A stretch of DNA of 64,000 nt from Candidatus Nomurabacteria bacterium (GCA_963832025.1 CAWHSF010000003.1:366121-430120), one strand, 5' to 3'; counted from the stretch's first letter, positions 819-60,157 are shown. Translations and numbers: made by a program. Notes: generated by a model not told the origin, from the sequence alone.

Positions 819-1630
819 TGACTGAAGAAAATAAAAAAAATATATCAGCAGTGGCGGGAACAATACATCCGCTTTCTTTATTAGCAGAAGAAGCTTTGCA
901 AGTGTTTTCTGATATGGGTTTTGAAATTGCGACTGGTCCGGAATTGGAAAGTGAATGGTACAACTTTGATGTCTTAAATGTGCCAAAAGACCATCCAGCG
1001 CGTGATATGCAAGACACCTTTTGGATTAAAGATTCTCCGCAGGAGCAAGAGAATTCTGAAGGCGGAAGGTTCCGCCCGAAGGGTGGAGTAATGCCGAAGA
1101 ATTTTCTTACTCCTGCAGGAGAAAATAGATTCGTCCTTCGTACTCACACCACAAGTGTCACTGCGCGGGCGATTGAGCAGGCGGGCAAAGAAGGCAGAAT
1201 GCCTTGTGCTTTTATTTCCATTGGAAAAGTCTTCCGAAATGAAGCCACGGATGCCACGCACGAAATGCAATTTTATCAGATAGATGGCGCGATGGTGGGA
1301 GTTGATATTTCTGTGGCGGACATGAAAGGTGTACTGACTCAATTTTATAAAAAAATGTTAGGCGAAGATGTGGTCATTGAATTTAGACCTAGTTTTTTTC
1401 CATTTACTGAGCCGTCGCTCGAAGTCTTTGCAAAATTTAAAGGTAAATGGCTTGAGATGGGTGGCTCAGGAATGTTGCATCCGAATGTTTTACGCAATAT
1501 TGGATTGGATCCTAAAAAAGTACAGGGATTCGCTTTTGGTCACGGGCTAGACCGCATTGCGATGATTAAATGGGGCATATCCGACGTGCGCTTCTTTTAT
1601 CAGGGAGATTTGAGACTTAATCAGTTTTAA
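818..1630 (+). CDS. pheS: Phenylalanine--tRNA ligase alpha subunit, short form lacking the N-terminal coiled coil, with an in-frame repeat insertion
   Basis: Class II motifs HPARDMQDTFWI, LRTHTTSV, GKVFRNEATDATHEMQFYQIDG and FPFTEPSLEV...GSGMLHPNVL. Extra segment QEQENSEGGRFRPKGGVMPKNF between DTFWI and LRTHT. Confidence 0.95.
   Translation: MTEENKKNISAVAGTIHPLSLLAEEALQVFSDMGFEIATGPELESEWYNFDVLNVPKDHPARDMQDTFWIKDSPQEQENSEGGRFRPKGGVMPKNFLTPAGENRFVLRTHTTSVTARAIEQAGKEGRMPCAFISIGKVFRNEATDATHEMQFYQIDGAMVGVDISVADMKGVLTQFYKKMLGEDVVIEFRPSFFPFTEPSLEVFAKFKGKWLEMGGSGMLHPNVLRNIGLDPKKVQGFAFGHGLDRIAMIKWGISDVRFFYQGDLRLNQF
1034..1122. repeat. ~89-bp hairpin element inside pheS (family A)
   Basis: Imperfect terminal inverted repeats tctccgcaggagcaagagaattc / gaagaattttcttactcctgcaggaga. 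The core is ~90 percent identical to the reverse complement of 3118-3171. Confidence 0.85.
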
Positions 1631-1633
1631 TTT

Positions 1634-3470
1634 ATGAATATTTCCTACAATTGGCTTAAATGGTACATTCCGGAAGCACCCGAGGCGGAAAAGCTGGTGG
1701 ATATTTTTAATTATCATCTCTGCGAAGTCGAGAGCTTAGAAAAGAAACCTGATGGAGATATTATTTTTGACTTGAAAATTTTACCAAACCGCGCGCATGA
1801 CTTGCTTTCTCATCAGGGCGTCGCTCGCGAGCTTGCTTCACTTTTAGATATAAAATTTGTTGACCCTACGCCAAAATATAAAATACCCGAATCAAAACCG
1901 ACCAGTTTAAAAATAGAAATAGAAAGTGATAAATGCCGTCGGTATATGGGACGGATTATTCGCAATGTAAAAGTCGGTCCGTCTCCGGAGTGGGTGGTGC
2001 AACATTTGGCTTCAATCGGGCAGAGAAGCATCAACAACATGGTGGATGCAGCAAATATTGTCATGTTTGATTGTGGTCAACCAACACATGTTTTTGACTT
2101 AGATAAAGTGAGTGAGAAATTAGTGGCTCGTATGGCGAAAGAAGGTGAAAAAATTACGACCTTAGACAATAAAGATTGTAGTCTGGAAGACTCTAATTTA
2201 GTCATTGCTGACGCTAAAAATGTTTTGGCCATCGCCGGAGTAAAAGGTGGAAAAATTGCCGAAGTAAACAATGACACAAAAAACATTATATTGGAGGTGG
2301 CAAATTTCGACCCAACTTCTGTCAGAAAAACTGCGCAAGCTTTAAACATTGTCACTGATGCGAAAAAACGTTTCGAAAATGACCTATCTCCAGAGTTGGG
2401 TTCTTACGCCATGCTTGAATTGTCCGCGCTAATTTTAGAAATGTGTGGAGAGGCTACTTTTGAAGATGTTGTGGATGCCCACCCGACCGAGTCATTCGGG
2501 CAGGTTTATCCACAAAAACAAGAAATAAAAAAGCTTTCTTTTTCAGCCGATAAAATATCAAAAATTTTAGGCGTTGATATTCCTATAGATAAAATAAAAG
2601 ATATTTTAGAGAGATATAATTTAGAATACGTAGAAGATAAAGGAGTTTTTGAAATTACGGTTCCACCGATGCGGCTAGATTTGGTCATTGAAGAAGACAT
2701 GGCGGAAGAAATCGGGAGGATTTTAGGATACGACAAAGTAGAAGGGAAGGTTCCGAAAATAAATTTTAAACCAAAAGTAAATGAGGCGTATGCAAAAATT
2801 GTTTTTGCCAGACATAAACTATTGAGCGATGGATATTCGGAAGTGATGAATACGAGTTTTAGCAATAAAGGGGAAGTGTCTGTTTTGGCATCTGCTTCCG
2901 ATAAAAATTTTCTAAGAGCAAATTTAACTGATGGGTTAAAAGAAAGTATCAAACTAAATCAAGCGAATGCTCCGCTGTTGGGGACGGAGCAAGTTAAAAT
3001 TTTTGAAATTGGAACGGTGTTTAAAAAAAGTGGGGAAGAGATGCATGTGGCTTATGGAGACAAGAAAGAGGTAAAAGAAATAACACTAGATGAATTTTGC
3101 TCTGGAATGCTGGAGCAGAATTCATTGGCATTACTCCACCCTGCGGGCGGAACCTTCCGCCAGCAGAATTCTGCTCCAGCATTCCAGATGTGGTCACTGT
3201 TTCCATTTATTGCGCGCGATATTGCGGTATGGGTTCCGGAAAATATAAAAAGTCGGAGATGTTGCTTTAGTCATCAAAAATAACATGGGAGATAAAGTTA
3301 TTCGAGGACCGGAACTTTTTGATGAGTTTAAAAAAGACGGAAAAATTTCTTATGCGTTTAGATTGGTATTTCAATCTTATGACAGAACTTTGACCGACCA
3401 AGAAGTGAACAATATTATGACAAAAATCACTGACCAGATAAAAGCAAAAAATGGCTGGCAGGTGAGATAG
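1634..3470 (+). CDS. pheT: Phenylalanine--tRNA ligase beta subunit, with no N-terminal tRNA-binding domain. Annotated as two ORFs because of a frame break.
   Basis: N-terminus NISYNWLKWYIP, PNRAHDLLSHQGVAREL, B3/4 and B5-like sequence, C-terminus ISYAFRLVFQSYDRTLTDQEV. ORFs 1634..3283 and 3285..3470 join across the A5 run at 3247-3251, giving ENIK-VGDVALVIKNNMGDKV. Confidence 0.9.
3102..3187. repeat. 86-bp hairpin element inside pheT (family A, opposite orientation)
   Basis: Perfect 22-bp terminal inverted repeats CTGGAATGCTGGAGCAGAATTC (3102-3123) and GAATTCTGCTCCAGCATTCCAG (3166-3187). Confidence 0.9.
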
Positions 3471-3562
3471 ATTTTTTGTCAGTTATCCCCAATATTTTGC
3501 TGAGTTTTCCTTTTCGGGAAAGGCTTATTTTGGTATAATATATAAAACAAACATAGAAAAAT

Positions 3563-4882
3563 ATGAAGCAAAAAAATAATTTTAAGATTTTCGTAAAAAA
3601 ATCACTAGTTTCTATTTTTTTTGTTCTCTTTTTTATTTTTACTTCCCATGTTTTTGCGACAACCGACCTCACAGCATTATCGCAACCCAATATTGCTAAT
3701 ACTCTAAAAACACAAAGCGAAGAAACATTACTAAATGCATTAAATAATGCGGATGTAATTTCTAAACTCACTGTTCCCACAACAACAACTATTCCTAAAA
3801 ATAATATTGTTCACCCCCTTTTTCAATTTAAGAACACCAATTTTTCTTTACTAGGGGGCAGTATTATTTCTATTTATAATAATTTTGTCCTACAGCCAAC
3901 TTCGGATGTGGAAACAGCAACACTTTTAATGATAGGGGATGGTCTAATCAGTATGGGCAATGTTACCGATTCTATTTACAGTAATTATGTTTCGTTCCCC
4001 AAATTGGCTTTTTCAACTCCAAAAATTAGTTTACTAAAAATAAATCCACCAAACGAAAACATGTTAGCAGCTGTGGTTGGCGCTGATGTAAATTATTATG
4101 TCACTGATTACAACGATTTTATCCTAAGACCTGTTTCTGGCTTGGAGACATCTATCTTACTTAAAATAGGGGAAGGATTAATCAATACCGGACACGCAAC
4201 GAGTTTTGTTTATAATAATGTTAAAAGCATAGATTCTAATTTTTACAACAACTATACTTCCGAACTCGCTGATATTTTATTTGCTCCCAAGATGGTGACA
4301 AAGACAACAGCTACTCCTACACCCGCAGTTGCTTCTGCTCAGAATACAAACACTTTAAATACCGCACCTACTGAGGCAGTTCAAACAGCTGGTATCATTA
4401 AAAATTGTGGAACAAGTATTGCTCCAAAATTTGGCAGTCCGGCTACTTATGAAAATAATTCCACACTGACTTGCTTGGCGCAAGCGGCGCTCACTTGTCA
4501 AAACGCGGAAGGTACTTTGACGAATAATTTTTTCCCGACTATCTTTGAAATCAGTAATACACAAAATTCCTGCGACTTTAAATTGTCTTATTCTACGGAC
4601 AGCACCCTTTCCGATATTACCGGCAAAAAACTAGCCGGAGAGTCTGTGTCATGTCCAGTTAGCATCGTGAAGGAGATAGACAACACTAACCCCACTTCTG
4701 TAAAATTTATTGAAGCCGATACTACAGACTTAAGTAAATATGGCAGTGATATATATTTTTATGGAACACTCGGTTTATTTGTAGAAAACGCCCTGGATCA
4801 AAATAAAATCCAATCTCTTGGTTGTAGCGGAGATTATATAAATACGATTATTTCCAGCTACAAAGTTGCTAAAATTCAATGA
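3563..4882 (+). CDS. Secreted protein with an internal duplication and a Cys-containing C-terminal domain
   Basis: Signal-peptide-like N-terminus (KKSLVSIFFVLFFIFTSHVFA). Duplicated ~90-aa module (ILQPTSDVETATLLMIGDGLISMGNVTDS versus ILRPVSGLETSILLKIGEGLINTGHATS). Eight Cys in the last 170 aa. Sits directly upstream of the giant surface gene. Confidence 0.6.
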   Translation: MKQKNNFKIFVKKSLVSIFFVLFFIFTSHVFATTDLTALSQPNIANTLKTQSEETLLNALNNADVISKLTVPTTTTIPKNNIVHPLFQFKNTNFSLLGGSIISIYNNFVLQPTSDVETATLLMIGDGLISMGNVTDSIYSNYVSFPKLAFSTPKISLLKINPPNENMLAAVVGADVNYYVTDYNDFILRPVSGLETSILLKIGEGLINTGHATSFVYNNVKSIDSNFYNNYTSELADILFAPKMVTKTTATPTPAVASAQNTNTLNTAPTEAVQTAGIIKNCGTSIAPKFGSPATYENNSTLTCLAQAALTCQNAEGTLTNNFFPTIFEISNTQNSCDFKLSYSTDSTLSDITGKKLAGESVSCPVSIVKEIDNTNPTSVKFIEADTTDLSKYGSDIYFYGTLGLFVENALDQNKIQSLGCSGDYINTIISSYKVAKIQ

Positions 4883-4929
4883 AAATTGGTTGAGTCTAAG
4901 TAGGTAATTTTTTACCCTTATTTTATATA

Positions 4930-4957
4930 GCCGAGATTAGCCGAGATTAGCCGAGAT
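4930..4957. repeat. Tandem decamer gccgagatta x2.8
   Basis: gccgagatta gccgagatta gccgagat, in the intergenic region upstream of the giant gene. Confidence 0.8.
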
Positions 4958-5017
4958 GCTTTTAGTTTTCCACATATTTTATACTTTTCGCATTATTAAA
5001 AAGGTATAATTAAACTA

Positions 5018-8000
5018 ATGAATTCTCGCTTATATCTTGGCGATGATAACAAGAAATACATCTCAACTAAAGAGGCTAGTTCTTTGACGGGTTACTCCAG
5101 AGATTATATAGGCCAACTTGTCCGAAGTAATAAGATAGATTCCCAAAAAATTGGCCGTACATGGTATGTCTCGGAGGAAGCAATTTTGAACTATAAAATA
5201 TTCTCAAATCAATTAGGGTTGGTTCCAGATGTGGCGCCAGAAAAGATCCAAAGTGAAAATTTTATTCAAAATCCGGTCGTGATTCCAGTTCCGAGTGTAA
5301 AACTTCCTGCTCCTTCCGTGTCGGGCGAAAAATTAAAAAAGAACCTAAAAAGAAAAAAAATACTTTTATCAACTTTTAGTTTTCTCCTGATAGCCGGGAT
5401 AGTCTCTGCGAGTGGTATCAATTTTAAAGAAGTCTTTAAAAATACTTTCTCCACGCCCAAAAGTTTTTTATCTGCTAGTTCAATCCAATCATTCCCCAAC
5501 AACAAAACACCGACCATAAACATTTCTGACTTGGCGACTTCATATGAAAATTATCTTACTCCACAAGTAGCAACCTCAAGTAAACCTTCTGCTCCTTCGG
5601 TTGAAAAAATTATTGAAATTGAAAAAAGTCCGGTTACGCAAACTGCTGTTCTTTCCATTTTGCAGAACTTGCTCAGCGAACCGGCAATCCAAAATGAACT
5701 TCGTGGTCCGACTGGACCAACCGGCCCAGCCGGAACTTCGGGAAGCTATGCCACCTACACCAGTTATGTGGCTCCGAATCCGGCAATCAATTATGTCGGC
5801 GCCACTTTTTCTTCCGCTTCCAATTTATCTTCCAACCTCTTGAACACCGGCACAGCCAACATAAATAATTTAGCTGTCTCCGCCGGCGCGATAATCGGAA
5901 GTTTGAATGTGACAGGAGATTCTTCTTTTGGCGGACAAGTTGTCGCCTCAACTGTTGTTGATTCCGGTTTAGTAAACCAAACTTGCATCGGCACCGATGC
6001 ATCAGGCGCATTTGAAGCCGGCACTTGTGGCAGTGGTAGTGGCAGTCAGTGGACAACTAGCGGGTCAGATATTTATTACAACACCGGCAACGTCGGCATC
6101 GGCACAACTTCACCGGCAGCAACGCTCGATGTCACCGGCACAGGTAATTTTTCCGGCGCACTGACCGCGGGAACAATTAACGGCATCACTTTCTCCGGTT
6201 CTTCCACGCCGACGCTCAGTGTCTCCGGAACGGCTTCCGTCTCTGGCGCCAACACCGGAGACAATGCAACCAACACACAATATGCAAATGACTATCGAGC
6301 AGCAAATTTTGTCGCCGGCACAGATTACCAAGCCCCCGTCACTCTCACTACCACCGGCAGTAGCGGAGCTTCCACTTTTTCTAGTAACACTTTAAATATT
6401 CCAAACTACACTCTCGCAGGTCTCGGAGGAATTTCTAATATCTCCGGTCAAGATTTAAGCACAGCCAACAATGCAACATCAAAATTTATAACTTTAGGTT
6501 CGCTTTCTGCCGGAACCGGAATTTCTTACGATAATACGACTGGGATAATTACAAATTCTGCTCCAGACCAAACCGTTGCTTTTTCCGGTGGAACAAATGT
6601 AACGATTGGTGGAACTTATCCAAACTTTACAATTACCGACAACTCCATAACTACGGGAGGAGCCAGAAGCGCAATTTCACTGACAACCACCGGAAGTTCC
6701 GGAGCCTCTACTTATAATTCGGGAACGGGTGTTTTAAATATTCCTCAATATCAAGCAGGATTGAGTTTAATTAAGGGAACTTATGTTGATGGGGATGTTT
6801 GTACTTATGCTTCTACCGGCACTCTTTTAAATTGTAATACCGCGGCATATCAAATAGCTTCTTCCGCTCTTTCTTCCATCGCCGGTCTTGCTTGGTCTTC
6901 CGGAACACCTTTCGTTAAAATGACAGCCTCCGGAACCTTTGCGCTAGATACAAATACATATGCGACCGGAAGTGGAACAGCCAGTGGCACCAACACCGGC
7001 GACCAAACACTTACCATCGGGGGCACAACTTCTCCAACTATCGCCTTATCGGGAAGCAATACAGCAACATTCTCCGCAGGAACAGGAATTACTTTAGGGC
7101 AATCGGCTGGAACGATAACAATTACAAATTCTGCACCTTTCACTGGGGGACTTCTTGCTACCGGTGCAACTACCGGTGCAACAAGCCAAGCTCAAGCGTT
7201 TACCAATGGCATAATCTCTCCGACCATTCTGGGCGGTTCAGGAACAACGCAAACACTTAACTTCCAAACTACTTCAGGGGTGGGTGCAACGGGAGCCGAT
7301 ATGCATTTCAATGTCGGCAACAACGGAGCGACGAATGCCATGACGATTTTGAATAGCGGCAACGTCGGCATCGGGACGACGAGTCCGGCACAGAAGTTAA
7401 CTGTCACTGGTGGAAATATACAAATGACTGATGCTGGGGCGAAATTGTATTTAACAGATGGCTCACATTATGTTTCTTACGACGGCACAAATACGCAAAT
7501 ATTTTCTAGTGTTGGTGGCGTCAATTTAGCAGTTAATACGGCATCTCCTATTTCATTTATAACTAATTCAGCGTACCAAATGAGGTTAAGTGCTACTGGA
7601 GGATTGTCACTTGGTTCAACCTATTATTCTACGGACGCTGGGGCAGGGAATATGATAATACAAGGCAAGGTCGGCATCGGGACGACGACGCCTGCTTATG
7701 GTTTAGATGTAGCAAAAGGGACTGGGGCAACGGCACAATTTTTTGACCAAACCGCGACCACGGGTAGCACGCTTGTTACTATTCAAGCAGGTGCGGCACA
7801 AAACGCTGGAGCTTATACAAATGTTTTGAATTTTGCTGGCAATAATGGAACGACCAGAGGGTATATAGCTGTAGACGGATTGAACGGAGTATCAAAACTA
7901 AATATTACTGATGTTGTCGCTTCAAATGGTAATTGGGAGTTAAAAGATTCGGGCTCGTTAAATATGTATGCTGGCAATTCAATCTACTTGCAAAATGCTC

Positions 8001-11000
8001 ACTCCAACTCTAATATACAATTGTATAACACTGGGGCAACGGGGGTATCGAGTCTAGCAATAATGAACGGCAACGTCGGCATCGGGACCACGGGGCCGAG
8101 TGATTTGTTGCAACTTGGCACTGGAAATTTAAGTTGGTCATCTGATGGTGGCGGTGATATTGGGGCGAGTGGAGGAAATAGACCAGGGAATATTTATGCT
8201 AAGATTCAAGTCAGGGCTGGTGCTGGTTATCTAAATGGTAATACGGTTGGAGGGAGTAGCAATTTTGCTTTGTCTGGTGGTGGTAGTGCTACTTTGACAA
8301 TTGGCGGAACAAGCAACACCATTGTTTTCAAAACTACCGCCTCTAATTCAGAGGTAATGAGGATAGAACCAATAAACGGCAACGTCGGCATCGGGACGAC
8401 GACACCGACGGCTTACTTAAACATCAAAGCAGGAACAGCCACAGCTAACACCGAACCTCTACAACTTACCGCTGGAGTATTAAACACCTCCGCCGTCTCC
8501 GGAGCATTAGAAACAGATGCAAGTAACAATTTATATTACACACCGGGTACAGGAACGAGAGGAATTATTCCTTTGGGCACAGCGGCAAATACTTTGCTCT
8601 TTACTACTACTGGTGCGACGAATGTGACTTTACCAACAAGTGGAACGCTGGCAACACTTGGTTCTCCAACTTTCACTGGCACTGTCACCACACCGGCTTT
8701 AACCATTTCCGGTATCACCGGCAGTACCCAATGCTTACAAGTCAACAGCAGTGGTGTGGTCAGTGGCACATCTGCAGCTTGTGGCGGAGGTGGTGGTTCA
8801 ACTGCTTGGAGCAGTATCACCAACCCAAGCGGAAATCTTTCTTTGGCAATGGCTGGTGACACCAGTACTTTCACTTACGGAGCGACAACCGGTTCAGCAA
8901 ACTTGTTCAACTTAACCGACACCTCTTCCAATACCGGCACTGGAGTTTTGTTGAATGTCTCAACTGCCAGTGGTTCTACTTTAAATCCTTTCTCCGTGAC
9001 TACCGCCGGTGCAACAAATCCGAGCTTGTATGTCGGTTCTAATGGTAACGTTTCAATTGGAACCTCAATTACAAATACTGCAGTTCTGCAAGTACAAGCA
9101 CCGGTTCCGGAGAGTAGTCTTTTTGCTTTTGCGAACCATGATTTTTCTCTGGGTAGCGTAGGAACTGCCATGACGATTGATACCGGAGCTACCTCCGGAG
9201 ATACCTATGTGGATATGCAAGCTTACAACGCTGGTGGAGTTAATGGCGGTCCTTTAGTTTTTAATGCTGCTGGTGGTAATGTCGGGATTGATACAAACGA
9301 CCCAACTACCGCTCTCACCGTTAATGGGAGTATGTCCAATCTCCTTAATCCCAGTTCAGCTTTTTTAAATGTTGTAGGTTCGACATCAATTACTTCTGCT
9401 TCCGTGGTCTACGTCTCCGGTAACTATGCCTATGTGGCAGATTATACCGGTAATGAACTTGATATTGTTGACATTACCAATCCGAATGCTCCCTATGTGG
9501 CTGGCACATTAAGCGGAATTAATCATATCTCTTCCATCTACGTTTCCGGTCGTTATGCCTATGTGACGGACAAAAGTATTGGTGACATGACTATCATTGA
9601 TGTTTCCAATCCGATTTCACCGACTGTGGTCGGTACATTAACCGGACTTAATACTCCTACCTCCATCTACGTTTCTGGTCGTTATGCCTATGTAGCGGAT
9701 AGCGGTAGTGGTGATATGTATGTGATTGATGTTTCCACTCCGAGATTACCGATTGTGGTTGCCACCTTAACCGGGCTGAGTAGTCCTTCCTCCATCTATG
9801 TTTCCGGTCATTATGCCTATGTAGCAGATAGTGGTAGTGGTCACATGTCTATCATCGATATTTCCGATCCGGTTTCACCGAATGTGATAGGTACAGCAAC
9901 CGGACTTGGTAGTCCCTCCTCTGTCTATGTCTCCGGTCGTTATGCCTATGTGACGGATACGGGTAGTGGTAACTTGTATTCCATTGACCTTTCCAACCAA
10001 GCTTCTCCGAGTGTGGTTGGTACGCTACCAGGATTTATTACTCCAACTGATGTCTATGTTTCTGGTAATTTTGCATATGTAACAGACAGTGACGGTGAAC
10101 TCGACGTCGTTGATATTTCCGACCCGACTACTCCGATTTATGATACATATGCAGGACTTACTGCTCCCGACTCGGTCTATGTCTCCGGTCAGTATGCCTA
10201 TGTCGCGGATAGTGGTGGCGGCGATATGGCTGTCATTGACCTAACCGGAACACAAACAACTTCCTTGACCGCCGGGAGTGCGAACATCGGCAACTTGCAG
10301 ATTGCTAATGATTCTTTGGTTGGTGGTCAACTGCAAGTAAATGGTGCCCTGACAGCCAACGGTGGAAACTTTAACAGTGGAGTTGCAGTAAATGGAAATA
10401 TTTCCAATACCATTTCATCTTCTTCTCCTCCGACTGTCGTTGCTACTGCCACCGGGCTGACTAATATCTTAACTGACTATGTCTCCGGTAACTATGCGTA
10501 TGTAGGAACTGGTACCGGTGGTACTGGTCATATGTATATCGTTGATATTTCCAATCCGACTGCTCCGAGTGTTGTCGGTACATTATCAGGGGTTGGTAAG
10601 ATTAATTCTATCTATGTTTCCGGTCAGTATGCCTATGTGTTAGATGATAGTAATGGCTACATGGATGTCGTTGATATTTCCAATCCGCATGCCCCAAGTG
10701 TTGTCGGTACAGTGGTAGGGTTTACTGGTCCTGTATCTATCTATGTTTCCGGTCATTATGCCTATGTGACAGATGCCAATTCTCTGACTTTGTCTGTCAT
10801 CGATGTTTCCAACCCGACTGCTCCGAATCTCATCGGAAGTCCATTGTCGCTGACTGCTCCTCTCTTCATCTATGTTTCCGGTCATTATGCCTATGTGACG
10901 GAAAGTGGTGGGAGCATGGATATCATTGATGTTTCCAATCCGTATTCTCTGAGTATTGTCGGTACAGCCACAGGACTTGGTTCTCTTGATGGCAATGTCT

Positions 11001-12514
11001 ATGTCTCCGGTCGTTATGCGTATGTAACAAATACTGCTAGTAGTGGTGATATGTATGTCGTTGATGTTTCCAATCCAGTTTCTCCAAGTACTGTCGGTAC
11101 ATTAGGACTTTCTTGGCCTCTTGGTATCAATGTCTCCGGTCATTATGCCTATGTGACGAGTTATGCTGGTGGTGGCATGTATGTCCTTGATGTTTCCAAT
11201 CCGACTGCTCCAAGTGCTGTTGCTCTTACACTCGGACTGACTACTCCTTCTTTTATCAGGGTTTCCGGTCGTTATGCCTATGTGGTGGAATCTACTGCTA
11301 GTTCCATGGCTGTCATTGACCTCACTGGTACCCAAACAACTTCTCTCACCTCCGGTAGTGCTAACATCGGTAACTTGCAAATTGCTAATGATGCTTTGAT
11401 TGGTGGTCAACTGCAGGTGAATGGTGGTTTGACGGCAAGTGGTGGAAACTTTTCGGGGGATGTGGCGACTGAGGGATCCTTAAACATTGCTGGATATGTA
11501 GGTATCGGGACGACGATGCCGGACAATCCTCTTACTGTTAACGGCGCAGCGGACAATACTACCGGTGTATGGTCTGTATTTTCTGATGAACGCTTGAAAA
11601 ATATTGACGGCAACTTTAATGATGGCTTGTCCACCCTGATGCAGTTTAATCCGGTTACGTTTACCTATAATGGACAAAATGGAATTTCGGACACTACTAC
11701 ACAGCAAATTGGTATCGTTGCTCAAGACGTGCAACAATTTGCTCCATATATGATAAATACAGTGGAAGGGACATTGAACGGACAGCCTACGAGTCTACTT
11801 CAATTCAACCCGCAAGCATTGCCATATATCACCATCAATGCAGTTAAGGAATTGAATCTAGATTTAGATGCGATTTCGGGATTGACGGTGCCGACTCCGA
11901 CTCCGGAATCTACCAGTTTTGCAACTGCGTTCTTTAAAAATATTGAAACTAAACTTATTGCTTGGTTTGCTGATGCTGGGAATGGAATAGGAGATTTGTT
12001 CGCTGGAACAATTCACGCTACAAATGAACTATGTATCAACACCACTTGCGTGACTCAAGCACAACTGCAAGCACTTTTGGCAAATTTAAATTCAAACGGA
12101 AACGCAGGAAACAATACGTCTGCCAATGCAGGCGAAAATAATTCAAATGTTCAAAATCCGCCTTCCAGTATTCCCGTAATCACTTTGATTGGTGATGCCA
12201 CCATTAATTTAAATGTCGGAGATACTTACACTGAACAAGGAGCAACTGCCACCGAAAATGATAATGCAGTCGCGGTTGTTATCAGCGGGACGGTAGACAC
12301 AACCACTGCCGGCACTTACACTGTTGATTATGATGCGACGGATTCTGCCGGGAACAAAGCGGTTGAAGTTACGAGAACAGTGATTGTTGCAAATGCGCCA
12401 GTTTCAACTTTTTCGTCGGACTCAGGATCTACGGCTACGCCTGCGACAACACCAGATTCAACAACAGCTAATTCCACAACCACTCCAGATTCTAGCACTT
12501 CAACTTCAAACTAA
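5018..12514 (+). CDS. Giant (2498 aa) membrane-anchored surface protein. Domain order: N-terminal excisionase-type HTH, one TM helix, short collagen-like GPT run, tail-fibre-like GNVGIGTTSP repeats, two 7-repeat LVIVD blocks, S74-type intramolecular chaperone domain, Ig-like domain, Thr/Ser-rich tail.
   Basis: Single uninterrupted ORF. HTH: YISTKEASSLTGYSRDYIGQLVRSNKIDSQKIGRTWYV. TM: LLSTFSFLLIAGIVSASGI. Collagen-like: GPTGPTGPAGTSG. Seven G(N/K)VGIG(T/D)T motifs. Fourteen YVSGxYAYVxD...(V/I)(V/I)D(V/I)SNP repeats. S74 domain: SDERLKNI...GIVAQDVQQFAPYMI. Ig-like: ITLIGDATINLNVGDTYTEQGATA...AGTYTVDYDATDSAGN. Confidence 0.85.
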   Translation: MNSRLYLGDDNKKYISTKEASSLTGYSRDYIGQLVRSNKIDSQKIGRTWYVSEEAILNYKIFSNQLGLVPDVAPEKIQSENFIQNPVVIPVPSVKLPAPSVSGEKLKKNLKRKKILLSTFSFLLIAGIVSASGINFKEVFKNTFSTPKSFLSASSIQSFPNNKTPTINISDLATSYENYLTPQVATSSKPSAPSVEKIIEIEKSPVTQTAVLSILQNLLSEPAIQNELRGPTGPTGPAGTSGSYATYTSYVAPNPAINYVGATFSSASNLSSNLLNTGTANINNLAVSAGAIIGSLNVTGDSSFGGQVVASTVVDSGLVNQTCIGTDASGAFEAGTCGSGSGSQWTTSGSDIYYNTGNVGIGTTSPAATLDVTGTGNFSGALTAGTINGITFSGSSTPTLSVSGTASVSGANTGDNATNTQYANDYRAANFVAGTDYQAPVTLTTTGSSGASTFSSNTLNIPNYTLAGLGGISNISGQDLSTANNATSKFITLGSLSAGTGISYDNTTGIITNSAPDQTVAFSGGTNVTIGGTYPNFTITDNSITTGGARSAISLTTTGSSGASTYNSGTGVLNIPQYQAGLSLIKGTYVDGDVCTYASTGTLLNCNTAAYQIASSALSSIAGLAWSSGTPFVKMTASGTFALDTNTYATGSGTASGTNTGDQTLTIGGTTSPTIALSGSNTATFSAGTGITLGQSAGTITITNSAPFTGGLLATGATTGATSQAQAFTNGIISPTILGGSGTTQTLNFQTTSGVGATGADMHFNVGNNGATNAMTILNSGNVGIGTTSPAQKLTVTGGNIQMTDAGAKLYLTDGSHYVSYDGTNTQIFSSVGGVNLAVNTASPISFITNSAYQMRLSATGGLSLGSTYYSTDAGAGNMIIQGKVGIGTTTPAYGLDVAKGTGATAQFFDQTATTGSTLVTIQAGAAQNAGAYTNVLNFAGNNGTTRGYIAVDGLNGVSKLNITDVVASNGNWELKDSGSLNMYAGNSIYLQNAHSNSNIQLYNTGATGVSSLAIMNGNVGIGTTGPSDLLQLGTGNLSWSSDGGGDIGASGGNRPGNIYAKIQVRAGAGYLNGNTVGGSSNFALSGGGSATLTIGGTSNTIVFKTTASNSEVMRIEPINGNVGIGTTTPTAYLNIKAGTATANTEPLQLTAGVLNTSAVSGALETDASNNLYYTPGTGTRGIIPLGTAANTLLFTTTGATNVTLPTSGTLATLGSPTFTGTVTTPALTISGITGSTQCLQVNSSGVVSGTSAACGGGGGSTAWSSITNPSGNLSLAMAGDTSTFTYGATTGSANLFNLTDTSSNTGTGVLLNVSTASGSTLNPFSVTTAGATNPSLYVGSNGNVSIGTSITNTAVLQVQAPVPESSLFAFANHDFSLGSVGTAMTIDTGATSGDTYVDMQAYNAGGVNGGPLVFNAAGGNVGIDTNDPTTALTVNGSMSNLLNPSSAFLNVVGSTSITSASVVYVSGNYAYVADYTGNELDIVDITNPNAPYVAGTLSGINHISSIYVSGRYAYVTDKSIGDMTIIDVSNPISPTVVGTLTGLNTPTSIYVSGRYAYVADSGSGDMYVIDVSTPRLPIVVATLTGLSSPSSIYVSGHYAYVADSGSGHMSIIDISDPVSPNVIGTATGLGSPSSVYVSGRYAYVTDTGSGNLYSIDLSNQASPSVVGTLPGFITPTDVYVSGNFAYVTDSDGELDVVDISDPTTPIYDTYAGLTAPDSVYVSGQYAYVADSGGGDMAVIDLTGTQTTSLTAGSANIGNLQIANDSLVGGQLQVNGALTANGGNFNSGVAVNGNISNTISSSSPPTVVATATGLTNILTDYVSGNYAYVGTGTGGTGHMYIVDISNPTAPSVVGTLSGVGKINSIYVSGQYAYVLDDSNGYMDVVDISNPHAPSVVGTVVGFTGPVSIYVSGHYAYVTDANSLTLSVIDVSNPTAPNLIGSPLSLTAPLFIYVSGHYAYVTESGGSMDIIDVSNPYSLSIVGTATGLGSLDGNVYVSGRYAYVTNTASSGDMYVVDVSNPVSPSTVGTLGLSWPLGINVSGHYAYVTSYAGGGMYVLDVSNPTAPSAVALTLGLTTPSFIRVSGRYAYVVESTASSMAVIDLTGTQTTSLTSGSANIGNLQIANDALIGGQLQVNGGLTASGGNFSGDVATEGSLNIAGYVGIGTTMPDNPLTVNGAADNTTGVWSVFSDERLKNIDGNFNDGLSTLMQFNPVTFTYNGQNGISDTTTQQIGIVAQDVQQFAPYMINTVEGTLNGQPTSLLQFNPQALPYITINAVKELNLDLDAISGLTVPTPTPESTSFATAFFKNIETKLIAWFADAGNGIGDLFAGTIHATNELCINTTCVTQAQLQALLANLNSNGNAGNNTSANAGENNSNVQNPPSSIPVITLIGDATINLNVGDTYTEQGATATENDNAVAVVISGTVDTTTAGTYTVDYDATDSAGNKAVEVTRTVIVANAPVSTFSSDSGSTATPATTPDSTTANSTTTPDSSTSTSN

Positions 12515-28322: not shown

Positions 28323-28412
28323 TTTTCCTCACAAAACACGGCCAACGCTTCCTTGCAAAGAAGCGTTGGCCACCTCTATTTTATGGGGATTTTTTGTGCT
28401 ATAAATACCAAC

Positions 28413-42814: not shown

Positions 42815-42889
42815 GAGTTACTTGTCCCGTTAAAAAATCAGCGAGACATGCATAAAGATATAAAATTATTAGCTTAAATTTTTAATGGG

Positions 42890-43597
42890 ATGAACTCAAA
42901 CCAGATTGATTGGAAAAAATATGTAATTGTCTTGCTGATTACCGCTGGTCTTTTTGTGACCGCTATATATTTAAGTAATTATTTTGGTAATCAAAAAATC
43001 AAACAGCTTCAAACAATTCAGGATCAAATTTCCATTGATGTTCTTTCTTCGGAAACTCAATTTTCATTACTTTCCGAACTTTCCTGTAAAAATATTTCCG
43101 ACTCTGTTTTCTCCGATGAGTTGTCGGAGCTTGGTAGCAAGCTAGAGTGGAGTCAAGACAACCTTGGCAATACGGCTGAAGTGTCTTATCTGCAAAAATA
43201 TTACTCACTCCTCGAAATTAAAGATTATCTTTTAAATAAACAAATTGCCACACGCTGTGGAGTAAAATCTGCATTTATTCTTTATTTTTATACCACGGCG
43301 GCAAATTGCAGTGTGTGTGAGCAAGAAAGTTTGGTGCTTTCACAATTGCGTGCGGAATATCCAGAACTTCGAGTATATTCTTTTGATTACAGTATTGATC
43401 TTTCTGCGGTCACTTCCATGTTGCAAATTTATAAAATAAAAGACACAGAGCTTCCGGCTTTGGTCATAGATGACAATGTCTTAACCGGTTTTCATGGTGT
43501 AGATGAATTAAATACCATCATCAAGAATTCTTTTAAACTGGAAAGTCCTACTACGGCTACCCCAGTCACTACTTCGACAACTTCTCTAGTAAAATAA
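42890..43597 (+). CDS. Membrane-anchored protein with a CxxC motif, possibly thioredoxin-like
   Basis: N-terminal TM helix (VIVLLITAGLFVTAIYL). CSVCEQES sits after a beta-strand-like YFYTTAAN, as in Trx-fold active sites. Thr-rich tail. Confidence 0.45.
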   Translation: MNSNQIDWKKYVIVLLITAGLFVTAIYLSNYFGNQKIKQLQTIQDQISIDVLSSETQFSLLSELSCKNISDSVFSDELSELGSKLEWSQDNLGNTAEVSYLQKYYSLLEIKDYLLNKQIATRCGVKSAFILYFYTTAANCSVCEQESLVLSQLRAEYPELRVYSFDYSIDLSAVTSMLQIYKIKDTELPALVIDDNVLTGFHGVDELNTIIKNSFKLESPTTATPVTTSTTSLVK

Positions 43598-50860: not shown

Positions 50861-52108
50861 ATGAGACAATCTAAACTTTTTACAAAAACCAGAAAAGAAA
50901 GCCCGGCGGACGAAGTTTCCAAGAATGCGGAATTTTTAATCCGTGGAGGCTTTGTGCACAAAGAGATGGCGGGGGTGTATAGTTATTTGCCGTTGGGTTT
51001 GCGAGTATTGCGAAAAATCGAGAATATCATCAGGGAAGAAATGAACAAGGTTGGTGGACAAGAAGTCTTGATGTCCACGATGCAACCGAAAGATAATTGG
51101 GAGAAAACCGGTAGATGGACCGCGATGGATGATTTGTATAAAGTCGGAGATTCTTCCGGCAGAGAAGTTGCACTCGGTCCCACTCACGAGGAAATTGTAG
51201 TTCCTATTTTGAAAAACTATGTCACATCCTATAAAGATTTTCCGGTGGCTGTTTACCAGATTCAAAATAAATTTCGTATGGAACTTCGCGCAAAATCCGG
51301 AATGTTGCGAGGCCGCGAATTTATCATGAAAGATATGTATTCCTTTCATACCTCCCAGGAAGATTTTGAACAATTTTACGAAAAAATGAAAGATGTTTAT
51401 AAAACAGTTTTTAATCGAGTCGGTATTGGGCATCTGACCTATCTTACTTTTGCTTCCGGTGGAACTTTCTCAAAATATTCTCACGAATTTCAGACAATTA
51501 CAGGAGCTGGTGAAGATACTATCTATATAGATGAAGGAAGTGGGCAAGCAATTAATCAAGAAATTTCCGGCGATGATGAAGTTTTAACCGCTCTGAATTT
51601 AAGCGCAGAAAAACTAGTTGAACATAAGTCCATCGAAGTCGGAAACATTTTTGATTTAAAGACTAAATATTCAAAACCATTCGATTTATCTTTCACCGAC
51701 GAAAAAGGCGAAAAACATATTGTTTTGATGGGTTGTTATGGAATTGGACTCGGTAGGCTTATGGGTACGGTGGTAGAAGCTCTTTCCGATGACAAAGGGA
51801 TTATTTGGCCGGAAGCTGTGGCACCTTTCATGGTACATTTTCTGGCTCTCGGAGGGGACGAAGCAGTTTCCAAAGAAGCGGAGAAAGTTTATGAAAGCTT
51901 GGAAAAGGCCGGTGTGGAAGTTTTATTTGATGACCGTAAAGATATTTCTGCGGGGGAAAAATTTTCCGATGCGGATTTACTCGGTATTCCTTATCGTGCC
52001 GTTGTCTCCGCTCGCAGTTTAAAAGAGAATGGAATTGAATTAAAAAAACGTTCAGAAGAAAAAGGGAAAATCGTAACTCTAGAAGAATTATTGAAAGTTT
52101 TAAAAATA
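50861..52108 (+). CDS. proS: Proline--tRNA ligase, short form without the INS editing domain. There is no stop codon before mreB in this assembly.
   Basis: Motifs MRQSKLFTKTRKESP...AEFLIRGGF, YQIQNKFRMELRAKSGMLRGREFIMKDMYSF and GCYGIGLGRLMG, plus the anticodon-binding C-terminus. Confidence 0.9.
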
Positions 52109-53156
52109 ATGTTTGAAAAAATTTACAAATTAATCAGTAACGACATCGGCATAGACCTCGGGACTTCAAATACCTTGGTGTATTTGAAAGGGCAGGGTAT
52201 CGTCATAAACGAACCTTCGGTGGTGGCGGTGAATATAAAGACCAATCAAATTTTGGCTGTTGGTACGCAAGCGAAAGAAATGCTTGGACGCACTCCAGGA
52301 CACATCAAGGCGATTCGTCCGCTCGTGGATGGTGTCATTTCTGATTTTGAAGTGACCGAAGAAATGCTTTCTTATCTCATAAACAAAGCGGATAAAATGT
52401 CCAAAAAATTAGCTCGACCGAGAGTGCTCGTCGGTGTGCCTTCCGGCACTACCAACGTAGAGACTCGCGCGGTGTATGATGCGGCACGCAGCGCCGGTGC
52501 GCGAGAAGTTTTTTTAGTTGAAGAACCAATGGCGGCAGCTATCGGCATACGACTTCCCATCAAAGACCCAGTCGGTTCGATGATTATAGATATTGGTGGC
52601 GGTACGACGGACATTGCAGTCATTTCTTTGGGTGGAATTGTAAAATCTAAAAATTTAAAAATAGCTGGCGATAGATTGAACAATGACATCATCAGTTATA
52701 TGCGTGATGAATTTAAAATATTAATTGGCGAGAGAACGGCTGAAATGGTAAAAATCGCTATCGGTTCTGTCATCTCAAGGCGAATATATGGAAACAGAAA
52801 TTCATGGGCGGGACCTCTTGACTGGCTTACCGAGAGAAGTGGTGGTGACTGATTCTGATATTCGTGAAGCACTTGCTGTCTCAATCAAAGGTCTAGTTGA
52901 AGGCGTAAAAGACATGTTGGAAACAACCCCACCGGAAATTTTATCGGACATAATGCACCGAGGTATTACTCTCTCTGGTGGTGGAGCTTTGCTTCCGGGG
53001 CTTGATCAAATGTTGCAAAAAGTTCTTAAAATTCCGGTTTATGTAGTGGAAGACCCACTTTCGGCTGTGGCTCGTGGCACCGGAGTTATTTTAGACGATA
53101 TTGCTCTTTATAAAGAAGTTTTGATTGGTAATCAAGATGAGTTACCTCCTAGATAA
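52109..53156 (+). CDS. mreB: Rod-shape protein MreB, with one frame break near 52770
   Basis: Motifs IGIDLGTSNTLVY, NEPSVVA, RPLVDGVISDF, IDIGGGTTDIAVISLGG, then (other frame) GRDLLTGLPRE and TLSGGGALLPGLD. Confidence 0.88.
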
Positions 53157-53975
53157 AAAAATACAAAGAAAAAAATTTTTTAAAATTGCACTCGGTGTGG
53201 TTGTTTTAATTATTTTATTTTTTTTTCGAACGGGTGTTTGGAACGGATTTTCGGATGTCAGTGAAATAATTTTTCATCCAGTTTTAGTTTTAGGAAAAGG
53301 AATTGAAGAAAAGTTCAAAGATATCGGTTCATATTTTGTTTCCAAAAGTTATCTTTATAATCAAAATCAAAAATTACAAGCAGAGGTTTCTTTTGATGAT
53401 GCACGAATGGCAAACTATAATTCTTTGGTTGCGGATGATGCCAGCTTGAAAGAAATTTTAAGCAGAAAGACCCGAAAGTAAATATGACTTTGGCCGCTAT
53501 TTTATCTAAGCCAAACCAAAGTCCTTATGATACCTTATTGATTGATGCGGGAACTAGCCAAGGTGTCGTAACAGGAAATACGGTTTTTGCTTTAGGCGAT
53601 GTGCCAATTGGTCGTATTTCAGATGTTTATCTAAATTCTGCCAAAGTAGTTTTATTTTCTAATCCGGGAGAAACAACACAAGCAATGATTTCATATCAAA
53701 ATCTCACGCCATCAGCAACTAATTCAACTGCCTCTTCTCCCAACAGTAATGTCTTTGTAAATTTAGTCGGAAGAGGTGGTGGAAATTTTGAAATTGTCAT
53801 ACCAAAAGGTGTGGTTTTGGAAGAGGGAGAGCAAGCGGTATTGCCGGGTATCAATGATTATGTTTTGGGTATTGTGCAAAAAGTAATTTCCGACCCGCGC
53901 AATGCTTTTACCAAAGTATTATTAACTAGTCCGATAAATATTGAGGAGCAAAAATTTGTGGAAATAGAGCAATAG
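53137..53975 (+). CDS. mreC: Rod-shape protein MreC, with one frame break near 53466-53475
   Basis: N-terminal TM helix, a coiled segment (NQNQKLQAEV), then SPYDTLLIDAGTSQGVVTGNTVFALGDVPIGRISDV, typical of the MreC beta-barrel core. Position is directly after mreB. Confidence 0.75.
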
Positions 53976-54010
53976 ACATCGGACATCTTCTAAAGCAGGT
54001 GTCCGATGTC
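53975..54010 (+). repeat. 36-nt hairpin upstream of tgt (copy 1)
   Basis: gacatcggaca-tcttctaaagcagg-tgtccgatgtc: 11-bp stem and 14-nt loop. Confidence 0.8.
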
Positions 54011-54032
54011 TCATAACGCAGAGAAATCCATT

Positions 54033-55344
54033 ATGGAATTTAAAATTGAGAAAAAATTAAAAGGAAGTCTTGGGCGTGCGGGGGTTTTAAAAACAGCACA
54101 TGGAGAAATACACACTCCGGCTTTTGTGGCTGTGGGCACGAAAGCAACAATCAAATCTTTGAATCCGGAACAAGTTCGTGAGGCTGGCGTGGAAGTGGTA
54201 CTTGGCAATACTTATCATTTATATTTACAACCGGGGGATGAAATCGTGCGTGATGCGGGGGGAATAGGGAAGTTTATGAATTGGAAGGGTCCGACCATGA
54301 CCGATTCCGGCGGTTTCCAAGTTTTTTCTTTGGGCGTGGCTTATGGAAAAGATATTTCGAAAATTACCAAAGCCGTGACTGACCCATCGCTTTTAATTCC
54401 GGAACGTTTTGACGATAGTGATGCTCCGCGTTTGGCAAAAATTGGGCAAGACGGAGTTTCTTTTAAATCACATCTAGATGGCTCGGTTCATTACATTACT
54501 CCCGAAAAATCAATTCAAATACAGCACAATCTTGGTGCAGATATAATTTTTGCATTTGATGAATGCACAAGCCCGACAGAAGATTTGAAATATCAAGAAG
54601 AAGCGCTGGAACGCACCCATCGCTGGGCGGAGAGAAGTTTAAGAGAGCATTCTAGGCTTGTCGCCTCGGCTGATACTTTTGCTCAGTCGCTCGGTCCCTC
54701 GCCAAGCTCAGCCACTCCTTTGCAAAAGCATGCATCCTCGGCTCCAGAAAAACTTGAAAGAAGTTTCGCACCAGCTCTTTTTGGCATCGTGCAAGGAGGC
54801 AGAGATGAGCGACTCCGAAAAGAAAGCGCGAAAGCAATCAGCGCTATGGACTTTTGATGGTTTCGGTATTGGTGGAAGTTTTGCCAAAGAAGATATGTCT
54901 ACCGCCGTGCGTTGGGTGAATGAAATTTTGCCGGAAGAAAAACCTAGGCATTTGCTCGGTATCGGCGAACCGGAAGATTTATTTATGGGAGTAGAAAATG
55001 GTGTAGATTTATTTGATTGTGTTTTGCCGACACGGCTCGGTAGAAATGGGACGATTTACACCCAGAATGGAAAAATAATAATAATGAACACAAAATTCAG
55101 AAATGATTTTTCTCCAATTGAAAAAGATTGCGAATGTTACACTTGTAAAAATTATACCAAGGCTTATGTTGCGCATCTCTTTCATGGCAAGGAAATGTTG
55201 GCAGGAACACTAGCATCTATTCACAATTTGCATTTTATAGTCAATTTAGTGAAAAATATTCGGCAATCAATTTTAAATGATAATTTTTTTGAATTTAAAG
55301 AAGATTTTCTTAAAGGGTACTCTGAGACGTTGGACATCTGCTAA
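54033..55344 (+). CDS. tgt: Queuine tRNA-ribosyltransferase, with a GC-rich internal insertion and a frame break in a T4 run
   Basis: Motifs HTPAFVAVGTKATIK, LGNTYHLYLQPG, TDSGGFQVFSL, FDECTSP, LFGIVQGG, GFGIGG, PRHLLGIGEPEDL and zinc site CECYTCKNYTKAY...H. Pieces join at the T4 run 54852-54855. Confidence 0.88.
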
Positions 55345-55361
55345 AGCAGGTGTCCAACGTC
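55326..55361 (+). repeat. 36-nt hairpin at the tgt stop codon (copy 2)
   Basis: gacgttggaca-tctgctaaagcagg-tgtccaacgtc. The loop matches copy 1 apart from one base, and the stem differences are compensatory. Confidence 0.8.
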
Positions 55362-55390
55362 TGGAACCTTTACACTTTTAGGACACTTGC

Positions 55391-56866: not shown

Positions 56867-56868
56867 AG

Positions 56869-59600: not shown

Positions 59601-59615
59601 GTGTATGCGGGTATG

Positions 59616-59687: not shown

Positions 59688-59702
59688 AAGCAGAATTCCC
59701 AG

Positions 59703-59773: not shown

Positions 59774-59858
59774 GTCTGTAGAATAATAGCCGAAATATAT
59801 AAAAATACAACGGCAATTTACATTTTAATCAAAATAATATAAAATGCCTTTGTTGTCT

Positions 59859-59931
59859 GGGCCTTTAGCTCATCTGGTAGAGCGCCTCATTTGCAATGAG
59901 GAGGTAAGGAGTTCGAGTCTCCTAAGGTCCA
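59859..59931 (+). tRNA. tRNA-Ala (anticodon UGC)
   Basis: gggcctttagctcatctggtagagcgcctcattTGCaatgagg...aggagttcgagtctcctaaggtcca, with the G3:U70 pair and A73. Confidence 0.9.
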
Positions 59932-60103
59932 CAATGATCCGCGAGAACAGCTGGGAGCTGCTTGAGCGAATCATCATTGTGTGACATGAGAGACGAGAAA
60001 GGCGGAGGCCGACGGGCCGAGCCGGGGTAGCGAAATTTTTCAGTAGAAAAATATTTGTGACCGAGTCTCCTAATGTCCACAGTTGTTCTTTGGAAAATTA
60101 AAT

Positions 60104-60157
60104 TCGGGAGTAGCTCAGCGGTACCTGCCTGCCGGCAGGCAGGGGGCGGTCGCCTGT
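60104..60157 (+). pseudogene. Orphan 5-prime half of tRNA-Asn (acceptor to anticodon positions 34-35) carrying a 20-bp palindrome in the D arm
   Basis: tcgggagtagctcagcggta[cctgcctgccggcaggcagg]gggcggtcgcctgt matches the intact tRNA-Asn 5-prime half at 60415-60448, apart from the insert and one substitution. Confidence 0.75.
60124..60143. repeat. Family C 20-bp perfect palindrome inside the tRNA-Asn 5-prime fragment
   Basis: CCTGCCTGCCGGCAGGCAGG, inserted relative to the intact tRNA-Asn D arm. Confidence 0.9.

Follow-up and report, generated by a model that had tools for sequence, protein, structure and literature searches.

GC-rich hairpin repeats inserted in frame in housekeeping genes of a Nomurabacteria-type genome

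Short GC-rich hairpins interrupt several highly conserved genes in a stretch of 64,000 nucleotides (hereafter the window) from a Candidatus Nomurabacteria bacterium (GCA_963832025.1 CAWHSF010000003.1:366121-430120), and the question raised by this locus is what these hairpins are and how they come to lie within the reading frames of housekeeping proteins. An initial annotation, made from the sequence alone, described them as dispersed palindromic repeats that behave like the Rickettsia palindromic elements (RPEs), in a genome of the type found in the candidate phyla radiation (CPR). The window has a GC content of 38%, and its genes include pheS, pheT, gyrB, thrS, the gene for RNase III, smc, rnr, rpoB, rpoC, dnaG, rpoD, tgt, the RNase P RNA and tRNAs. 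The host is indeed a member of Candidatus Nomurabacteria/Paceibacterota, as the relatives of its PheS are found only among metagenome-assembled genomes labelled Candidatus Nomurabacteria, Paceibacterota or Patescibacteria (top match 77% among species representatives). The analysis below favours, as the probable explanation, several families of dispersed selfish hairpin repeats that, in CPR bacteria of the Nomurabacteria type, colonised permissive surface loops of housekeeping proteins and the linkers between their domains.

Hairpin inserts in the window and in orthologous genes

All ten hairpin sequences listed in the initial annotation are present where it placed them. Eight perfect hairpins (stem of at least 9 bp, stem GC of at least 0.6) were detected when the window was scanned, and none in 20 Markov shuffles; six of the eight are listed sites, and the other two (28340 and 57867) resemble ordinary terminator or leader hairpins. 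That these are dispersed repeats is confirmed by near-identical cores of 20-54 nt common to unrelated genes. A repeat finder pairs pheS 1050-1103 with pheT 3119-3172 (91% complementary, 54 nt) and gyrB 14489-14528 with smc 20102-20141 (83% complementary, 40 nt), and the 20-mer CCTGCCTGCCGGCAGGCAGG has identical copies in dnaG and at 60124. Predicted fold energies reach -53 kcal/mol for the pheS element and -58 to -62 kcal/mol for the pheT element (z = -8 to -10). An Rfam search at gathering and permissive thresholds returned no match at the elements, only chance microRNA-like ones. Over 1.36 Mb, 56% of GC-rich hairpins (n = 70) were found well inside long open reading frames (ORFs).

For comparison with orthologues, pheS, pheT, gyrB, thrS and smc were aligned, guided by synteny, with up to 80 relatives. 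Of the genomes available, GCA_031291825.1 (loci L081 and L082) is the nearest, at a protein identity of about 81-85%. The segments in pheS, pheT, thrS, smc, rnr, dnaG (two sites) and tgt are extra, lineage-specific members of dispersed families when set against about 80 relatives. The clearest case is pheS, where a family A element (1034-1123, + strand) forms a 90-nt, 30-codon insertion between DTFWIKD and NRFVLRTH. Its core, GGAAGGTTCCGCCCGAAGGGTGGAG, lies on the + strand and is translated as ENSEGGRFRPKGGVMPKNF. The site between DTFWIKD and VLRTH holds 33 residues in the window and 3-4 in most relatives, a gain of 30 aa. The initial annotation had suggested that structures be used to look for a surface-loop location, and the AlphaFold model agrees with one: the insert (residues 75-107) has confidence scores (pLDDT) below 50, the catalytic core 80-97, and the insert is thus predicted to be a floppy, disordered surface loop.

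The second family A element (pheT, 3101-3188, - strand) has perfect 23-bp arms and occupies the linker preceding the FDX-ACB domain, with its core on the - strand and translated as EQNSLALLHPAGGTFRQQNS. This linker is an AT-rich, unstructured 15 aa in 'basal' genomes, with a minimum free energy (MFE) of -2 to -4; the window has a GC-richer hairpin in its place, and in other hairpin-filled relatives the MFE is -25 to -53. Two small insertions that the initial list of sites had missed, although every site on it is real, are found elsewhere in pheT (2477-2503, + strand, GC 0.70, AHPTESFGQ) and in trmD (29024-29056, + strand, GC 0.55, ACPVGSTLSFG); the closest relative has neither.

The remaining families are represented by shorter elements. 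Family D forms a clean 30-nt, 10-codon insertion in thrS (16897-16926, - strand, SADAKALADR); most relatives have no additional residues at this site, and one (L039) has an unrelated insert there. Family B is found in the acidic linker of gyrB (14489-14528, + strand), as a C-rich leader followed by the hairpin CCTCCCCCTTGTTAAGGGGGAGG, and in smc (20086-20141, + strand), in the orientation inverse to that of the gyrB copy. The smc copy adds about 13 aa that no aligned relative has. The family B2 element in rnr (25309-25350, - strand), which comprises the hairpin CCCCCTCTCCTTGTCAAGGAGAGGGGG and a G-rich tail and is translated as PPLLDKERGLGGE, adds 10 aa relative to the solved Bacillus subtilis RNase R (8cdu), between DDA... 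and GVHIADVSHY. At the first dnaG site (37826-37847, + strand), the 20-mer named above, the family C palindrome, forms a 21-nt, 7-codon insertion (GLPAGRQ), 7 aa over the basal sequence. The second dnaG site (37920-37971, + strand) is a double hairpin directly before KYLNSPET, in which an element at 37920-37945 is followed by a family D element at 37946-37971; it adds 8 aa where relatives read AFSGRIFVDDGKSAKYL. The description of each element as adding extra residues holds for pheS, thrS, smc, rnr and the first dnaG site, but the hairpin at 37920-37945 replaces native residues (GRIFVDDGKS to GRLLEAGLS...). Inverted duplication of a native host sequence as the origin of one stem arm was considered and ruled out for pheS, pheT and thrS, where the empty orthologous sites contain neither arm. 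It may hold only for dnaG 37920-37945, the left arm of which encodes the conserved GRLL.

The family I/E element in tgt (54652-54775, + strand; ...ASADTFAQSLG...QKHASSA...), initially listed as probable, can be accepted, as its DNA is 74-79% identical to elements in the pheT genes of two relatives (L003 and L034). Its hairpin is degenerate, and the fold is no longer significant (z = 0.37). Separately, tgt is overlapped at its start (53974-54011) and again at its stop (55325-55362) by a 38-nt hairpin (AGACATCGGACATCT...AGGTGTCCGATGTCT), whose two copies differ by two compensatory double changes.

These comparisons were extended to sites that had not been preselected. Across about 25 genes shared with the closest relative, five of the six window-specific insertions of at least 4 aa are GC-rich hairpins, with a GC content of 0.55-0.81, and none of the five insertions of that size specific to the relative is a hairpin.

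Reading frame, family A and turnover at fixed sites

At the pheT linker, every locus with a continuous frame has a gap length divisible by three and no stop codon, whatever the insert, which argues that the inserts are translated and not spliced. The exceptions are four relatives (L012, L036, L038 and L055) in which pheT is split into two ORFs at the hairpin linker, the frame-broken L075, and the window itself, with a 1-nt shift about 60 nt downstream. The natural splits confirm this site as a domain boundary. Translation without a stop, initially claimed for each insert, applies to most sites but not to the gyrB copy, where the frame changes at the hairpin and a stop codon follows at 14546-14548; deletion of the 23-nt hairpin, or of one base, restores the frame.

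Essential genes in the window contain at least six frame disruptions. These are located at about 3246 in pheT, at 14119 and at the hairpin (14506-14548) in gyrB, at about 28740-28860 in trmD (split into ORFs 28353-28757 and 28853-29167), at about 54835 in tgt, and at 50861-53481, where a class II aminoacyl-tRNA synthetase is apparently fused to MreB and two short ORFs follow. Read at base level, the pheT and gyrB 14119 disruptions each consist of one extra non-homopolymer base. The disruptions suggest an error-prone, possibly long-read, assembly and not pseudogenes, and, given the single-base frameshifts elsewhere in this assembly, the loss of frame at the gyrB hairpin is probably an assembly error rather than evidence of bypass.

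A search for further copies of a core, proposed in the initial annotation, was conducted for the core found in pheS and pheT. A degenerate 25-nt core pattern matched 108 stretches of metagenome contigs, and these, pooled with the loci, yield 102 unique copies of family A. Nearly all of them (97 of 102) lie within ORFs of at least 100 aa and are open in the host frame, and 93 of these 97 use one of two frames: 74 copies are read in the antisense frame a0 (...NSxALLHPxGGTFRxQNS...), 19 in the sense frame s0 (...GRFRPKGGVM...) and four in all others. As judged by the flanks, the host proteins include LigA (zinc finger and adenylation domain), PheS, PheT, MnmA, DusB, TGT, UvrC and a LeuRS-like synthetase. 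Whichever frame is used, a0 is open in 96% of all copies and s0 in 88%, and family A as a whole therefore appears to be constructed for translation in either of these frames. Families B, D and E/I likewise occur in other genes and genomes, and the core of family A has no match in viral contigs. The elements are found, in hundreds of copies, in assemblies from NCBI, JGI, ENA and Logan, and their presence in independent assemblies from four data sources means that they are not an artefact.

The geometry of family A is that of a fixed centre with variable ends. Its 25-nt core contains an 8-bp helix with covariation between C-G, G-C and T-A at one position; there are also a 3-bp helix (P2) and an 18-23 bp outer stem (P1), which is conserved in its inner portion (AGAATTCT). 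At the outer 12 positions of P1, identity between copies is just 38%, yet 92% of positions are paired, compared with 50% in shuffled or slid controls, and there are four to six pair types per column. The core-sense strand shows an excess of G·T over A·C pairs (124 versus 42, p = 1e-10), with a ratio that is alike in both gene orientations, and this strand is predicted to fold more stably than its complement by about 8 kcal/mol (mean MFE -41.4 versus -33.2 kcal/mol). Transcription-linked deamination was considered as the source of the G·T excess and ruled out, the sign of the skew being the same in both gene orientations. Most copies (76%) run antisense to their host gene, and the fold under selection is therefore not one formed by the host mRNA; we infer that it is formed by one DNA strand or by a transcript specific to the element.

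Individual sites exist in several states. Among PheS proteins at least 79% identical to that of the window, the site is empty in P0004 and P0005, contains family A in the + orientation in the window and P0002, contains it flipped (-) in P0001/L081, with a homologous outer stem, and is occupied by at least four other families in P0003, P0006/P0027, P0007/P0015/P0029 and P0016/P0044. Similar turnover between empty, filled and swapped states is seen at the pheT linker, the gyrB acidic linker and both dnaG loops. Elements are also found within or beside one another: one hairpin family is nested in another in L078, family A lies within family I in a metagenomic tgt allele, and the LigA gene of L081 (about 4120-4231) has two family A copies in opposite orientation, 60 nt apart. 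L081 contains five family A copies in 20.8 kb, so element density differs several-fold between close relatives. The phenomenon is clade-wide and widespread in related groundwater bacteria, and is not peculiar to this window.

tRNA/GIY-YIG cassettes and miniature elements

The remaining copy of the family C 20-mer (60124-60143) was initially described as lying in a tRNA-Asn fragment. It does, but it is part of a GIY-YIG cassette (60102-60487, + strand) and not a solo insertion. The cassette consists of a 5' duplicate of tRNA-Asn (60102-60155), a GIY-YIG ORF (about 60173-60432) and an intact tRNA-Asn gene (60415-60487). The duplicate corresponds to nucleotides 1-37 of the intact gene (60415 onwards), and the 20-mer cleanly splits its D-loop between GGTA and GRGC, with no target duplication. 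The ORF is degenerate in the window, matching PF01541 with E = 1.2e-9 when its internal stop is removed (2e-15 for intact homologues).

This architecture recurs, with a 5' tRNA copy broken by one or more GC hairpins, an ORF of 80-90 aa encoding a GIY-YIG domain, and an intact tRNA gene. The identical 20-mer at the identical tRNA position is found in the cassettes of viral contig L114 and metagenome contigs L124-L126. A variant palindrome is present in a cassette before tRNA-His of Daviesbacteria (L118-L123), and family D-like hairpins in a cassette before tRNA-Ser in two Nomurabacteria relatives (L025 and L034). The cassette is conserved across phyla: the contigs that carry it are viral, labelled Omnitrophica or from CPR, and one of them (L125) contains a tandem pair. 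A literature search found no description of such a tRNA/GIY-YIG cassette.

The 20-mer was also detected in 35 viral-contig stretches, mostly with 54-68% GC, and direct repeats of 7-14 nt flank 28% of the viral-contig copies, compared with 3% of controls. A sequencing adapter was considered as its source and judged unlikely from its conserved position in a conserved cassette and from the frames that it keeps; to our knowledge it matches no adapter. In phage-borne tRNA-Met genes of two viral contigs (L107 2284 and L084 8616), this 20-nt palindrome occupies the variable-loop position, and ARAGORN still calls the L107 tRNA-Met despite it.

A profile search across the DNA gathered identified further GIY-YIG ORFs, three of which (L175, L207/L165 and L222) are bracketed by inverted repeats of 12-14 nt, of the type CCCGTTAAAGAT...ATCTTTAACGGG followed by ATGRA. 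Elements of 48-117 nt with the same ends and without an ORF are found in the pheS-pheT gap of L011, in frame in the LigA gene of L145/L208, and in the window at 42826-42889 (+ strand). The window copy is 64 nt long, has terminal inverted repeats of 12-13 nt (CCCGTTAAAAAAT...ATTTTTAATGGG), and is located directly 5' of the ATGAAC start codon of ORF 42890-43597, where the corresponding gap in the closest relative is 6 nt. All of these inverted-repeat elements abut ATGRA at the right end. The ORF-carrying and ORF-less forms stand in the classic relationship of autonomous and miniature elements, and the in-frame LigA miniature demonstrates that GIY-YIG-associated hairpin elements can sit in frame in essential genes. 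Since a GIY-YIG nuclease is joined to one palindrome and miniature derivatives exist, it is a candidate mobiliser. A connection between family A and GIY-YIG leader hairpins, by way of a common 'GGAGTAA' after the hairpin (L131), was considered too weak and was not used.

Three other features of the window were recorded. About 9 kb between pheT and gyrB (3563-12514) has no counterpart in the closest relative, where the two genes adjoin; it contains an ORF without a Pfam match and a protein of 2498 aa with a long array of 129-nt (43-aa) repeats (9339-11452). ORF 26116-27075, also without a Pfam match, includes a Gly/Tyr/Arg-rich simple repeat (GGYGGRGG..., 26779-26942), with which local GC rises to 0.49. 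Finally, a GC-rich stretch immediately after tRNA-Ala(TGC) (59933-60060) contains GAGACGAGAAAGGCGGAGGCCGACGGGCCGAGCCGGGGTAGCG and has no Rfam match.

Explanations and comparison with known systems

The suggestion that selfish palindromic DNA is tolerated in frame, advanced in the initial annotation, is supported from two sides, as orthologues are without the segments and further copies are numerous. Under the colonisation of permissive loops by selfish repeats, new copies would land widely, and purifying selection would retain only copies in tolerant loops that leave the frame intact. The families may have adapted to translation, as the stop-free consensus of family A in the two used frames would suggest. 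The functional unit may be the folded single strand of one particular DNA strand, given the conserved asymmetric core, the drifting but complementary stem, and the tolerance of G·T and not of A·C. Mobilisation or copying could then pass by way of a hairpin of single-stranded DNA, the arms of which would stay matched through templated repair within the hairpin or through selection, and the trans-acting activity may be that of the small free-standing GIY-YIG nucleases of these genomes. Interspecies transfer at identical sites would most simply occur by homologous recombination via the highly conserved flanks.

Several points weigh against this explanation or limit it. The family A copies were chosen by an intact core, which inflates the apparent conservation of that core. 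The conserved part of family A is stop-free in the antisense frames a1 and a2 in more than 80% of copies, yet these frames are used in only 3 of 77; stop codons as the cause of the frame bias are thereby ruled out, and random insertion followed by a filter does not predict such strict frame use unless the other peptides are harmful. Stems that are variable but paired could mean that the stems lie outside the mobile unit. That the inserts are read as part of the protein is itself argued from frame conservation. For the in-gene families, no transposition event, no pair of empty and filled sites at near-identical flanks and no target-site duplication was obtained. For families A, B, D and E/I the analysis found no partner with an ORF, and a direct link to GIY-YIG is confined to the 20-mer cassette and the 42826-type family. 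Among 20 window ORFs scanned, there was no HUH/Y1 transposase or integrase, although no search dedicated to HUH/Y1 or RAYT proteins was made.

A more far-reaching version of the same idea is that the elements constitute a novel class of mobile element, in which strand-specific single-stranded DNA hairpins are mobilised in trans by minimal (80-90 aa) GIY-YIG nucleases. The nuclease gene would lie in the loop or beside a tRNA, the miniatures would be translatable in fixed frames inside essential genes, and the stems would be rebuilt by hairpin-templated synthesis, which would account for stems that are hypervariable yet perfectly paired. This version can be offered only tentatively and is on balance improbable; with no ORF-carrying partner found for families A, B, D and E/I, the extension of the GIY-YIG link to them is hypothetical.

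It is unlikely that the inserts are instead maintained because they benefit the host, whether as mRNA structures that tune translation or RNase III decay, as recombination or uptake signals, or as a short peptide motif common to many housekeeping proteins and displayed on them. The frame use is far stricter than stop avoidance demands, the core is highly conserved with stems kept by compensatory change, the hosts are concentrated in information-processing genes, and the window encodes RNase III. However, the two orientations yield unrelated peptides (ALLHPxGGTFR and GRFRPKGGVM) at the same sites, close relatives have no insert or a different family at the same site, the better-folding strand is most often antisense to the mRNA, the insert is predicted to be disordered, and many unrelated families act alike. 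The last point also makes an uptake-sequence model seem unlikely.

Somewhat less probable again is a history of recombination without any transposition, in which inserts originated rarely and passed between genomes via conserved flanks, as uptake-like or hitch-hiking alleles. The same sites are filled in distantly related genomes, the flanks DMQDTFWIKD and VLRTHTTSV are nearly invariant, and CPR bacteria are thought to depend on DNA uptake. Such a history is difficult to reconcile with the occurrence of one family in unrelated genes without flank similarity (PheS, PheT, LigA, MnmA, DusB, TGT and UvrC), with the five copies of family A within 21 kb of L081, or with the identical 20-mer at two unrelated places in the window and in high-GC viral contigs.

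Excision of the inserts from RNA, by an RNase and religation, or their bypass in translation, as with mitochondrial 'byps' and T4 gene 60, is very doubtful. The gyrB frame is restored by removing exactly the 23-nt hairpin, and perfect stems of at least 20 bp would be RNase III substrates. One extra base explains gyrB equally well, however, and other single-base shifts are present in pheT, gyrB 14119, trmD and tgt. A removed sequence would need neither a length divisible by three nor freedom from stop codons, yet the continuous-frame pheT alleles have both, and nearly all family A copies are open in the host frame; splicing or bypass was rejected on frame conservation at the pheT linker. Evolution in place of ordinary loops specific to the lineage, or artefacts of assembly, can be dismissed as the least probable source, for although the host sites are variable linkers with common indels and the assembly contains errors, near-identical DNA cores of 20-54 nt in unrelated genes, inserts so much richer in GC than the genome, and the recurrence of the elements, hundreds of times, in assemblies made independently and drawn from four data sources all speak against them.

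The selfish hairpin repeats can be set beside several known systems. Bacterial MITEs (miniature transposable elements with inverted repeats; Correia/NEMIS, ERIC, RUP and BOX) are non-autonomous, hairpin-forming and present in high copy, with occasional in-frame fusions (PMC10969869, PMC3184786). This description suits the 42826-42889 element and its kin, whose terminal repeats are conserved and which have a longer partner with an ORF. Families A and E/I show the reverse, variable ends and a conserved centre (38% arm identity in family A); no transposase-type partner was found, and most of the CPR copies are intragenic and translated.

The GC clusters of yeast and other fungal mitochondria are short, GC-rich, palindromic mobile sequences in an AT-rich genome; they are nested, occasionally in frame (var1), and of unclear mechanism. 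Unlike the CPR elements, GC clusters are organellar and mostly intergenic, and we know of no evidence for their fixed-frame use across many essential genes. The ends of IS200/IS605 elements, the repetitive extragenic palindromes and bacterial interspersed mosaic elements (REP/BIME) associated with RAYT transposases, and integron attC sites all act as folded single strands. The CPR elements are similar in their strand-specific hairpin, in their tolerance of G·T and extra-helical bases, in the conservation of structure over sequence, and in the insertion of the 20-mer in the tRNA copy without target duplication. REPs are extragenic by definition, and most of the GC-rich CPR hairpins lie inside ORFs.

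Free-standing GIY-YIG homing endonuclease genes, such as I-TevI-like genes and the phage seg genes, offer another parallel. The cassette resembles them as a small ORF at a conserved tRNA gene, with the target duplicated so that the gene stays intact, and in its occurrence on phage-like contigs and across phyla. It differs in that its ORF is only about 80-90 aa, the catalytic domain alone, and in the constant GC-rich palindrome in the displaced tRNA copy. The presence of inverted repeats at the ends, and of miniature derivatives, points to behaviour like that of a transposon rather than to homing.

The closest parallel is that of RPE-1 to RPE-10 of Rickettsia (Ogata et al. 2000, 2002; summarised in PMC10969869). 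A 2024 review of MITEs treats RPEs as the outstanding case, with the same in other prokaryotes only speculated, and the initial impression that no description exists for this kind of genome agrees with a full-text literature search, which found none in CPR. The features of an RPE-like class are present here: a dispersed hairpin family, a peptide read in a fixed frame in unrelated genes (the gyrB copy excepted), absence from orthologues and location in a fold-compatible loop. Like RPEs, the CPR elements are dispersed hairpin repeats of several families, often in frame in unrelated housekeeping genes, with a conserved peptide per family in a fixed frame, fold-tolerant locations, no transposase of their own and a small-genome host dependent on other cells. 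The likeness is by function, and the elements are set beside RPEs by description; as the host is a member of the Nomurabacteria and not of the Alphaproteobacteria, common descent is unlikely.

Protein-coding palindromes inserted in frame have been a Rickettsia curiosity for 25 years; with a second group of reduced, host-dependent bacteria, unrelated to the first, now seen to carry them, the phenomenon becomes a general one. The abundance of the elements, with many families and hundreds of copies in groundwater metagenomes, opens them to comparative study. The inserts inflate and diversify CPR housekeeping proteins and can mislead alignments, phylogenies and structure predictions, and the hairpins may cause assembly and sequencing errors. 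Handles on how the elements move are offered by the conserved core and its covarying stems, by the G·T signature of one strand, and by the association with minimal GIY-YIG nucleases. Compared with RPEs, the CPR elements are GC-rich in an AT-rich genome, and they are heavily reused and nested at the same sites across genomes. What is new relative to RPEs is the conserved asymmetric core with covarying, hypervariable stems, the use of both orientations at the same site, the occurrence of palindromes of 20-30 nt beside composites of 80-120 nt, both shorter than the approximately 100-150 nt of RPEs, and the physical linkage of some families to GIY-YIG genes.

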